Virus record (IMG/VR): IMGVR_UViG_2703719355_000008
Strand: one strand, 5' to 3'
Source of the DNA: a virus
Taxonomy: Duplodnaviria > Heunggongvirae > Uroviricota > Caudoviricetes
DNA: 7,973 nt
In this document: positions 1,840 to 4,370 of the stretch, in pieces
Layout of the letters: each line of letters starts with the position of its first letter
Position numbering within the stretch: position 1 is the stretch's first letter
Made by a program: the position numbers and the translations under genes
Notes under the pieces: generated by a model
Database searches by the model: none
What the model was told of the DNA's origin: nothing
Seen by the model: only the letters and a program-made list of their open reading frames with translations

Positions 1840-2673
1840 GTGACTGAATTAACCAAAGAGAAATTAATCGAAGAAGCCAAATTAAAAATAGCGATTGCGA
1901 AATGCTACTCCAATTCAGGGATGGCACGGGTAGAGGGCGAGTTATTCAAAATTGCACTGGCATCGCTGGAAGCAGAACCAATAGGTGCTTTCCACATTGT
2001 AGAACAGCAAGTTGACGGAACAAGTTACTATATCAAGGATGGGGAATGGCCTATTGATACTGGGATTATTGAAGTCTACGCCGCCTCACCGATGACGGTA
2101 GTGCTGAACGATGTATCTGGACCTCTTGCTCTTGCTTACAAAGAGCTTACACCTGCGATTATGCGCAACCATATCGCTGTATTCGAACGATACGGAATAA
2201 CCCCAAACGATCGCATTACTACAATTCATGCGCTTCGAATTGCGCTGGATGGCATAGAGCGGAGCGACGCCATGCTTCATGGACGTCAGCCATGCCATCA
2301 AATTACCGCCTCAATGGCAAAAGCTATTGCGCTTAAACTTGGTGCCGAACTGAATAACGAAGAAGCAGAGATTTTCGCGGATGGGTATAACACCGCCATG
2401 CTTCATGCCGAAAACTTTCGGGAAAATAAGAATTCGTCAACCAATAATTTTCGGATAACCTCGGAAACGTCAACCAACTCTCCGGCAATCCCTGATGAGG
2501 TGTTGTCCGCAATCCTGAAGGTCGCCAGGGTTCGTGCAGATTTCGATGCTTCTGAAGGTGACAGGCGAGGTATCGGTGGTTGTCTGGATGAGGCCGAGCA
2601 AGAACTTATCGTTACCATTAACAAATACGCCAGTCAGATCGCAGTAGAAGCGATACAGGGGGCGCACCAATGA
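1840..2673 (+). CDS. Hypothetical phage protein (277 aa)
   Basis: Long ORF in the operon orientation. Start uncertain: GTG at 1840 lies 25 nt from the SD with the hairpin in between; next in-frame ATG is at 1918. No Walker A or other catalytic motif recognised. Confidence 0.7.
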   Translation: MTELTKEKLIEEAKLKIAIAKCYSNSGMARVEGELFKIALASLEAEPIGAFHIVEQQVDGTSYYIKDGEWPIDTGIIEVYAASPMTVVLNDVSGPLALAYKELTPAIMRNHIAVFERYGITPNDRITTIHALRIALDGIERSDAMLHGRQPCHQITASMAKAIALKLGAELNNEEAEIFADGYNTAMLHAENFRENKNSSTNNFRITSETSTNSPAIPDEVLSAILKVARVRADFDASEGDRRGIGGCLDEAEQELIVTINKYASQIAVEAIQGAHQ

Positions 2674-2782: not shown

Positions 2783-2887
2783 ATGTCGGATGATATTTCA
2801 CTGGTAATGGAAGGCGCTCTGGCTGTTATTGCTGTTGTGGGTGTTTACTGCCTGGTTGTGTTTTTGATGGATCGCCTGGGGAACTGA
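2783..2887 (+). CDS. Candidate 34-aa small membrane peptide (MSDDISLVMEGALAVIAVVGVYCLVVFLMDRLGN)
   Basis: ATG at 2783 preceded by strong SD AAGGGAGGG (2772-2780); single hydrophobic helix; stop TGA at 2885-2887. Not on the ORF track because it is under 60 aa. Confidence 0.45.
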   Translation: MSDDISLVMEGALAVIAVVGVYCLVVFLMDRLGN

Positions 2888-2927: not shown

Positions 2928-2956
2928 TTTGCTGTAAAGCGAGAGTTAAGTAGAAT
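2928..2956 (+). promoter_or_regulatory. Putative hok/mok promoter (-35 TTGCTG 2929-2934; -10 TAGAAT 2951-2956; 16-nt spacer)
   Basis: Hexamers read by eye. Predicted start near 2962 coincides with the 5' element (2961-2974) that is complementary to the mRNA 3' end (3337-3351). Confidence 0.4.
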
Positions 2957-3024
2957 TGCTGCGGGTGCTTGAGGCTGTCTGCCTCGGGCATGCCGCCGTA
3001 AGGCAGACAGAGAAAAGCCCCAGT

Positions 3025-3083
3025 TAACATTACGCGTCCGGCAAGACGCTTAACATTAATCTGAGGCCATATCTATGACTTGC
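3025..3083 (-). ncRNA. sok: Putative Sok-like antisense RNA (approximate bounds)
   Basis: Minus-strand promoter-like hexamers: -35 TTGCCT (complement of 3113-3118), 17-nt spacer, -10 TAACCT (complement of 3090-3095), giving a start a few nt inside mok and transcription into the hok leader. This matches the known hok/sok layout. The 3' end is not defined; a GCGTC/GACGC stem lies at 3043-3058. Confidence 0.35.
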
Positions 3084-3287
3084 ACATGTAGGTTAGCCTC
3101 TTACGTGCCGAAAGGCAAGGAGAAGCAGGCTATGAAGCAGCAAAAGGCGATGTTAATCGCCCTGATCGTCATCTGTTTAACCGTCATAGTGACGGCACTG
3201 GTAACGAGGAAAGACCTCTGCGAGGTACGAATCCGAACCGGCCAGACGGAGGTCGCTGTCTTCACAGCTTACGAACCTGAGGAGTAA
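3075..3287 (+). CDS. mok: Mok-like overlapping reading frame (70 aa), in frame with hok
   Basis: ATG at 3075 with SD-like TGAGG 8 nt upstream; N-terminal extension MTCTCRLASYVPKGKEKQA precedes the hok Met, as in chromosomal mok/hok pairs (from memory). Confidence 0.5.
   Translation: MTCTCRLASYVPKGKEKQAMKQQKAMLIALIVICLTVIVTALVTRKDLCEVRIRTGQTEVAVFTAYEPEE
3132..3287 (+). CDS. hok: Hok/Gef-family type I toxin (51 aa small membrane toxin)
   Basis: Translation MKQQKAMLIALIVICLTVIVTALVTRKDLCEVRIRTGQTEVAVFTAYEPEE carries the Hok/Gef signature (TM helix, TRKDLCEV, conserved C-terminus) and is near-identical, from memory, to E. coli HokD/RelF. AAGGAG SD at 3117-3122. Confidence 0.9.
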   Translation: MKQQKAMLIALIVICLTVIVTALVTRKDLCEVRIRTGQTEVAVFTAYEPEE

Positions 3288-3355
3288 GAGACCTGGCGGG
3301 GGAGAAATCCCTCGCCACCTCTGATGTGTCAGGCATCCTCAACGCACCCGCACTT

Positions 3356-3385
3356 AACCCGCTTCGGCGGGTTTTGTTCTTTTTG
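3356..3385 (+). terminator. Rho-independent terminator of the hok transcript (copy 1 of a 23-bp repeat)
   Basis: Stem CCCGC-TTCG-GCGGG (3358-3371) followed by a T-rich tract TTTTGTTCTTTTT. Confidence 0.75.
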
Positions 3386-3427
3386 TGAAAAAAATTCCCT
3401 TAAAGGAGATTTTTTTAACTAAAAAGG

Positions 3428-3531: not shown

Positions 3532-3891
3532 ATGGCACTCACTGAATTCGGTAAGGCCGTTAGAAAAGCGAGGATCGATACTGACAGTACTCTTCTGACT
3601 ATGTCTCAAGAACTGGGCACTACGCCAGCGTTTCTTAGCGGTTTAGAAACTGGTAGCAAAAAAATACCTCTGAAGTGGGTTAAGAAGATTGATTCTTACT
3701 TCAAGGCCAAAGGTGTAGAAATTGAAGGGTTACAGGAGTTAGCGGCAGTTGCGAATGACTCAGTTCCAGTAAACGGTTTGTCTCAGCAACAGAAAATGCT
3801 TGTAGCGGGATTCGCTAAGTCGCAGTTTACGCCGGAACAGCTAAAGAGTTTTGCAGATTTATTGCAAAAGATTAATAACAATGAGGGGTAA
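3532..3891 (+). CDS. XRE/Cro-type helix-turn-helix transcriptional regulator (119 aa) with C-terminal extension
   Basis: ATG at 3532 with SD GAGGAT at 3521-3526. N-terminus (LTEFGKAVRKARIDTDSTLLTMSQELGTTPAFLSGLETGSKKIP) fits the HTH_XRE pattern. Stop at 3889-3891 is 2 nt before the next gene. Confidence 0.85.
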   Translation: MALTEFGKAVRKARIDTDSTLLTMSQELGTTPAFLSGLETGSKKIPLKWVKKIDSYFKAKGVEIEGLQELAAVANDSVPVNGLSQQQKMLVAGFAKSQFTPEQLKSFADLLQKINNNEG

Positions 3892-3893
3892 TT

Positions 3894-4370
3894 ATGTATC
3901 AAATGAGAGGTAACAGGGTGTCACCGATGCAAGAAGAAGAAATAGCCTACAGAGCTATAAACTTCTGTAATGCTATTGGTCTTACAGCCTCAAAGCGCAA
4001 AAGAAAGCGTTATGATATGTTCTTTGAAAGCCTGTCAATTTATGGGGTTACTCTTGACGTCAGGACCGACAAAGAGTGGGAGGCTCTGACGTATGATCTA
4101 ACTATCGGACATTGTGACCCCGCTTCTCTAACAATTACGGTTCCCAATAAAATATATGTGAATGCTTGCCTTGGGGAAGAGCATGCACTTGCTGTTATCT
4201 TCCACGAGCTAGGTCATTTGCTTCTTGGACACAAAGCAGTTTTACACTTTTCAGTTAAAGAACCTACTCGTATTGAGGATGCAGAATGGCAGGCAGATAC
4301 ATTTGCGGATATCGTACTGGAAACAATTGGCGTGAGAACACAACAGATGTCGTTCGATTTTTATATGTAA
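3894..4370 (+). CDS. ImmA/IrrE-family (COG2856-like) zinc metallopeptidase (158 aa)
   Basis: SD GAGGGG at 3884-3889. HExxH zinc-binding motif FHELGHLLLGH at residues 103-113 (nt 4203-4217), with size and partner arrangement typical of ImmA-like peptidases paired with XRE regulators. Confidence 0.8.
   Translation: MYQMRGNRVSPMQEEEIAYRAINFCNAIGLTASKRKRKRYDMFFESLSIYGVTLDVRTDKEWEALTYDLTIGHCDPASLTITVPNKIYVNACLGEEHALAVIFHELGHLLLGHKAVLHFSVKEPTRIEDAEWQADTFADIVLETIGVRTQQMSFDFYM

Follow-up and report, generated by a model that had tools for sequence, protein, structure and literature searches.

A sokW-type antisense RNA and its promoter predicted in the hok/mok/sok locus of a lambdoid Escherichia coli prophage

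[quoted passage not shown] Its toxin gene encodes a small protein that matches the Pfam family HOK_GEF (PF01848) with 82.9 bits, at a cut-off of 22. Around this gene, the following elements are observed or predicted on the plus strand:

2928..2956, plus strand: putative hok promoter, TTGCTG/17 nt/TAGAAT, 6 nt upstream of G2963, as read off the sequence
2963..3385, plus strand: full-length hok mRNA, as placed by the start of the match to Rfam family RF01794, the MFE fold and a terminator scan
3063-3066, plus strand: SD of mok, GAGG
3075..3287, plus strand: mok reading frame of 70 aa, in frame with hok; an open reading frame in the arrangement of the curated mokC/hokC and mokW/hokW, with a common stop codon
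3117-3122, plus strand: SD of hok, AAGGAG
3132..3287, plus strand: hok toxin gene of 51 aa, HokD in RefSeq, identified by Pfam and RefSeq
3356-3373, plus strand: terminator of the hok mRNA with its T-run, from the terminator scan

"Mok" is, in this locus, Hok with an N-terminal extension, 70 aa in total. The start codons of mok and hok are 57 nt apart, and thereby in frame, in the window, in hokC, in hokW, in Photorhabdus and in most of the other loci, while other relatives have a spacing of 56 nt or, like the R1/F type, an out-of-frame spacing of 58 nt. This comparison included the loci L010, L011, L014, L016, L023, L025, L028, L029, L031 and L177. The relative frame of mok and hok is not conserved, which fits the published view that it is the translation of mok that matters and not its product. 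In the MFE fold of the hok mRNA, the 5' tac segment (2963-2974) pairs with the fbi segment (3337-3349), with a z score of -8.6. A shortened mRNA, 2963-3340, with a presumed 3' end, did not show the textbook tac/ucb rearrangement in its MFE fold, so that the refolding step of the hok mRNA is proposed here by analogy. As to the putative hok promoter, the family alignment shows that a -10-like TAGAAT, TATAAT or TATATT is kept at this position.

The chromosomes of E. coli 90-3040 and 2013C-3492 contain the region from 2940 to 3400 of the window at 100% identity. Of the 5426 complete E. coli genomes, 4728 carry related copies, at a median of 2 places per genome, and the strains that carry this region have 5-6 matching places each. 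In RefSeq the neighbourhood is that of a lambdoid prophage, with a replisome organizer, DUF977 and DUF551 upstream, and a HTH protein, an ImmA/IrrE peptidase, DUF968, RusA and an antiterminator downstream of hokD. The sequence supports an intact hok/mok/sok locus situated among the early genes of a lambdoid E. coli prophage. The HTH protein (3532-3891, plus strand) has no Pfam match at E ≤ 0.01; together with the peptidase, an ImmA/IrrE-type M78 metallopeptidase (3927-4370, plus strand), it forms a repressor/protease-like pair directly downstream of hok. On the other side, a 277-aa open reading frame with a GTG start (1840-2673, plus strand) has no Pfam match, and its 3' part (2386-2673) is a truncated DUF551 pseudogene in RefSeq. 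A hydrophobic open reading frame of 34 aa (MSDDISLVMEGALAVIAVVGVYCLVVFLMDRLGN; 2783-2887, plus strand) with its own GGAGG SD ends approximately 40 nt before the hok promoter. It is listed as hypothetical in RefSeq, it has no Pfam match, and a repeated GAATTC-containing sequence is present on its flanks.

The opposite strand of the hok leader carries the elements with which this study is concerned:

3113..3118, minus strand: -35 hexamer of the sok promoter, TTGCCT, read off the sequence (AGGCAA on the plus strand)
3096..3112, minus strand: spacer of the sok promoter, 17 nt, holding the near-invariant GTAAGAGGC, from the sequence and the family alignment
3090..3095, minus strand: -10 hexamer of the sok promoter, TAACCT, read off the sequence (AGGTTA on the plus strand)
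3007..3083, minus strand: predicted Sok antisense RNA, its geometry carried over by alignment from the curated sokW and sokC
3068..3083, minus strand: 5' tail of Sok, 16 nt, the presumed target-recognition segment, from the fold and the variability within the family
3016..3068, minus strand: terminator hairpin of Sok, 23 bp with two small internal mismatches, from the fold and covariation
3015-3009, minus strand: U-tract of Sok, UUUCUCU, directly 3' of the terminator hairpin

The initial annotation had proposed the arrangement -35 TTGCCT, 17-nt spacer and -10 TAACCT on the minus strand at 3090-3118, and it agrees letter by letter with the sequence. The overlap of the -35 with the hok SD, which it also claimed, exists but is marginal: the two nucleotides AA are common to 3113-3118 and the AAGGAG at 3117-3122, and the -35 merely abuts the GGAG core. 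Of the 12 positions of the sigma-70 consensus, the hexamer pair matches 7, and pairs of at least this quality occur 84 times in the window, both strands included, compared to 87±10 times in shuffled sequences, a rate of roughly one per 190 nt of strand. At this chance level the match by itself is no better than chance; I dropped it as stand-alone evidence, and it carries weight only via positional homology. A generic sigma-70 scan of both strands between 2850 and 3500 reported no promoter at its threshold of 9/12, which is uninformative, as the sok and the hok promoter both fall below this threshold.

Conservation was assessed in 39 homologous loci from Escherichia, Shigella, Kluyvera, Pseudocitrobacter, Citrobacter, Pantoea and Photorhabdus. 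All of these loci have TTG as the first half of the -35 (TTGCCT or TTGACC), and most of them keep TA..CT in the -10 (TAACCT, TAATCT, TAGTCT, TACTCT or TAGCCT; the plasmid type has TATCCT). The promoter region overlaps mok codons, the hok SD and a small hairpin of the hok leader, and these constraints confound its conservation; in my assessment, the identity with the validated sokW promoter described below therefore counts for more.

The ends of the predicted RNA follow from the curated relatives. The curated 5' ends of both sokW (phage 933W) and sokC (E. coli K-12) lie at the ninth nucleotide of mok, and in this geometry Sok of the window would start at G3083, 7 nt after TAACCT; all 39 loci have a G at this +1 position. 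The 3' end would lie at 3013 according to the 933W annotation of sokW, resulting in an RNA of 71 nt, or at 3007 according to the K-12 annotation of sokC, resulting in 77 nt. Several expectations formed from the letters alone are borne out by this alignment: a start of antisense transcription a few nucleotides inside mok (here its nucleotide 9), a course across the mok initiation region (the predicted Sok spans the mok ATG at 3075-3077 and the SD at 3063-3066), and a geometry of sok relative to mok as in the known systems, which is that of the curated sokW and sokC. The originally proposed span, 3025-3120, does include the promoter but leaves out the 3' arm of the terminator hairpin and the U-tract, and the 3' boundary has to be placed at approximately 3007-3013. 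The anticipation that annotation based on open reading frames would call no ncRNA here was accurate as well, as RefSeq has the hokD CDS alone, without mok or sok.

As an RNA, the minus strand from 3084 to 3008 takes the form of a mostly unpaired 5' tail followed by the hairpin (dG -30.4 kcal/mol, z -4.7). The tail is unpaired in this fold except for 3-4 weak pairs with the 3' U-tract, and it is complementary to the mok start codon, to the first codons of mok and to the spacer between SD and ATG. Conserved in the 39 loci are the complements of the mok start codon (CAT) and of the mok SD (GGCCUC).

In the family alignment, the 13 alignable pairs of the Sok hairpin, read on the minus strand, are paired in 97.0% of the cells. 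Five of these pairs show compensatory changes, for example AU (26) with GC (12), or GC (22) with AU (13). None of 500 shuffles reached the observed pairing, and registers that were slid along the alignment are only 39-55% paired. When the same columns are read on the plus strand, 76.3% of the cells are paired, a deficit that is caused by 105 G·U cells of the minus strand turning into C·A mismatches. In all 39 loci, and in all 26 unique hairpins, the hairpin gains 4-11 kcal/mol in stability when it is folded on the minus strand. The neighbouring hairpin of the hok leader serves as an internal control, and favours the plus strand in 24 out of 29 unique sequences. These comparative sequence data are evidence of selection for a structured RNA on the minus strand.

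The search with covariance models that had been suggested as a check on the antisense RNA results in a strong match to RF01794 ("sok antitoxin (CssrC)"), with 114 bits compared to a gathering score of 59 (E 3.8e-26). This match covers 2963-3137, overlaps the Sok region, follows the model end to end from position 1 and is the sole Rfam match in the window. However, it is located on the plus strand, and as such does not test for an antisense transcript. The model comprises 157 positions, from the 5' end of the hok mRNA (GGGUGCUUGAGG) to the hok AUG, and RF01794 is about 2.3 times the length of the curated sokC and sokW. In K-12, RF01794 matches the strand of hokC (L002 602-754, minus), whereas the curated sokC is found opposite (653-711, plus). 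Likewise, the match in 933W is on the plus strand (L056 323-497) and the curated sokW on the minus strand (373-443), and the R1/F-like plasmid locus (L177 252-423) shows the same strand behaviour. As RF01794 is antisense to the curated sokC and sokW, it models the leader of the hok mRNA and marks the locus rather than the Sok transcript; I rejected the match as a decisive test of the antisense RNA for the reason that the model sits on the hok strand. In the literature I found listings of RF01794, but no discussion of this strand problem.

The hokW-sokW locus of Shiga-toxin phages is represented by phage 933W (AF125520), in which mokW, hokW and a "SokW antisense RNA" are annotated, and by the Stx2 phage Sp5 (VT2-Sakai; AP000422). 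On the minus strand, the 58 nt from 3140 to 3083 of the window, comprising the hok ATG, the -35, the spacer, the -10, ACATGT and the +1 G, are 100% identical to the sokW region of 933W/Sp5, and the terminator hairpin and the GGGGCUUUUCUCU tail/U-tract of 933W are identical to those of the window. Both loci have a lambdoid prophage as their setting, and in both mok is in frame with hok. Overall, the 933W locus and the window are 92.9% identical, with 0 differences in the 144 positions of 3083-3226, 9 in the 15 positions of the Sok tail at 3068-3082 (60%), 8.6% differences in the rest of the leader and 5.2% in the hok CDS. The C-terminus of Hok also differs between the two loci (AYEPEE vs. DYESEK), as do the first leader hairpin, in its loop, and the region of the 3' terminator. 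In Sp5, Takada et al. observed that a mutation of the -10 abolished the protection from HokW and unmasked its toxicity (PMC8621323). SokW provided in trans partly restored protection and growth, and sokW RNA was detected on northern blots and fell after mitomycin C (PMC8621323). The 30-nt probe YO-597 of that study equals the minus strand of the window from 3119 to 3090, and its 'pro-less' primer YO-421 changes TAACCT to GAGCCG, as deduced from the primer sequence (PMC8621323).

Two further known systems share the overall plan. In K-12, sokC (b4413; hokC/mokC, gef) has its 5' end at nucleotide 9 of mok and starts with a G, as in the window; the GGCCUC...GGGGCUUUUCUCU frame is common to both, as is the mok frame that is in register with hok. 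However, the hairpin of sokC is 18 nt shorter than that of the window and its tail is different; its -35 is TTGACC, its -10 is poorer (CACTCT or ACTCTA), and the spacer in the sokC group measures 18 nt compared to 17 in the window. In addition, IS186A is located about 20 bp from the stop codon of hokC. In the hok/sok (parB) locus of the R1/F-type plasmids, the promoter is placed relative to the hok SD and the mok ATG as it is in the window, and the R1/F-like plasmid locus reads TTGCCT/17 nt/TATCCT, with a -35 identical to that of the window and a -10 one base off. By analogy, the tac/fbi pairing, the coupling of translation to mok and the RNase III logic of R1 (PMC9841398) would hold for the window locus as well. 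In the R1/F type, mok is out of frame and starts 58 nt upstream of hok, compared to 57 nt in the window, and HokW and Hok of R1 are approximately 44% identical (PMC8621323). The setting differs also: R1 is a plasmid, where hok/sok acts in post-segregational killing, whereas the window is a prophage, and for Sp5 it was proposed that HokW assists lysis upon prophage induction (PMC8621323).

Among the loci collected, L006, L027 and L045 are Hok homologues without any sok, mok or leader region, and L005 has a damaged -35, in which TTGCCT is changed to CTGTGCCT; these four are decayed or re-wired copies. Near-identical hok loci of the E. coli type were also found on very short contigs assigned to Acinetobacter idrijaensis (L017) and Xanthomonas pisi (L022), and at 96% identity in the record of Actinobacillus phage vB_Apl-pPE4 (H26). 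These three records are probably due to contamination or mislabelling rather than to a real host range.

The existence of such altered copies raises the possibility that the window holds a decayed remnant comparable to hokD/relF of K-12, in which the upstream mok/sok has been lost, and that the hexamers are the fossil of a promoter without a functional antitoxin. Four of the fetched loci have indeed a replaced or altered upstream region, and the annotation of the hokD CDS alone by RefSeq would agree with such a remnant. However, the hok promoter-like site, tac, fbi, the mok ATG and SD, the hok open reading frame, the sok promoter, the hairpin and the U-tract are all intact in the window, the promoter equals the functional sokW promoter base for base, and an intact hok without a working Sok is expected to be lethal, as was shown for hok of R1 (PMC9841398). 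I consider a remnant quite unlikely on these grounds. It is less likely still that the only ncRNA of the locus is the plus-strand Rfam 'sok' element of approximately 175 nt (2963-3137), with no separate transcript from the minus strand. The single Rfam match of the window, at 114 bits, does lie on the plus strand, but its extent from the 5' end of the hok mRNA to the hok AUG identifies it as the hok leader, the curated sokC and sokW are found opposite to the corresponding matches in K-12 and 933W, and the G·U pattern of the hairpin favours the minus strand. Moreover, a minus-strand RNA of about 70 nt has already been detected in Sp5, of which the promoter is identical (PMC8621323).

The least probable alternative is that the hexamer pair is a chance match, and that antisense transcription, if any, starts elsewhere. 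Equally good matches turn up about once per 190 nt of strand, as in shuffled sequence, and the generic promoter scan came out empty, both of which would be expected for a fortuitous pair. Against this stands its position: the pair is found exactly where the promoters of sokW, sokC and the R1/F-type sok are found, its 17-nt spacer is that of these promoters, apart from the 18 nt of the sokC group, and the curated and invariant +1 G follows at a distance of 7 nt, whereas in any given interval of 20 nt on one strand only about 0.1 such sites are expected by chance. The reading that I prefer, and to which I assign a probability of roughly 0.9, is that the sigma-70 promoter on the minus strand (TTGCCT/17 nt/TAACCT) would drive the transcription of a Sok RNA of 71-77 nt from G3083 in a hok/mok/sok locus. 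By its sequence, this predicted Sok is an unannotated allele of sokW of the Shiga-toxin phages, which has been studied experimentally, and is as such already known.

The data above show the anatomy of the sequence, the identity to a validated promoter, the conservation and a structure that is specific to one strand. Transcription in this strain, the kinetics of pairing, the dependence on RNase III and Hfq and the biological role are what I infer for the window allele, and the proposed course of events is modelled on hok/sok of R1 (PMC9841398) and hokW/sokW of Sp5 (PMC8621323). As it is cis-encoded, Sok is perfectly complementary to the hok leader over the mok SD and start codon. If the locus behaves like those of R1 and Sp5, Sok would be made constitutively, and its tail would nucleate the pairing with the 3'-processed and refolded hok mRNA over the mok initiation region. 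This pairing would block the translation of mok, and consequently that of hok, which would be coupled to it, and the duplex of Sok and hok mRNA would then be cleaved by RNase III with the help of Hfq. Once the unstable Sok is lost, either with the loss of the element or upon prophage induction by DNA damage, the stable hok mRNA could be translated, and Hok could then damage the inner membrane. In Sp5, sokW declines upon DNA damage, and HokW is proposed to contribute to lysis and to the release of phage (PMC8621323); a similar lysis-assisting role is plausible for the window allele by analogy.

The 5' tail of Sok shows a pattern of its own. The two tail segments that flank the mok start have column entropies of 1.4-1.5 bits and form the most variable part of the family; the values for the promoter hexamers, the U-tract and the SD complement are 0.2-0.55 bits. 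In a set of 120 viral contigs (IMG/VR) with identical flanks, an identity imposed by the search pattern, 11 tail variants in about 4 classes are observed, and the class of the window is rare (4 out of 120). On the two sides of the 15-nt tail at 3068-3082, the promoter and the terminator agree base for base among prophage alleles, and one could tentatively propose that this tail is a swappable specificity cassette, although I find this rather doubtful. As an alternative, the variation of the tail may be simple neutral drift, as the complementarity to the hok mRNA is kept automatically.

The import of these observations for biology at large is small, as the prophage version of the system, hokW-sokW, has already been characterised. 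They do show that automated annotation misses the Sok RNA at this locus, where RefSeq lists hokD alone, and that pipelines using RF01794, the single public covariance model of the name "sok", would place the antitoxin on the strand of the toxin. If the tail were indeed a specificity cassette, its pattern would fit diversifying selection, or localized recombination, against cross-protection among the hok/sok loci of co-resident prophages, in which case each prophage would stay individually 'addictive', or individually triggerable. With several hok/sok copies per E. coli genome, an allele-specific tail bears on whether these copies can cross-protect.
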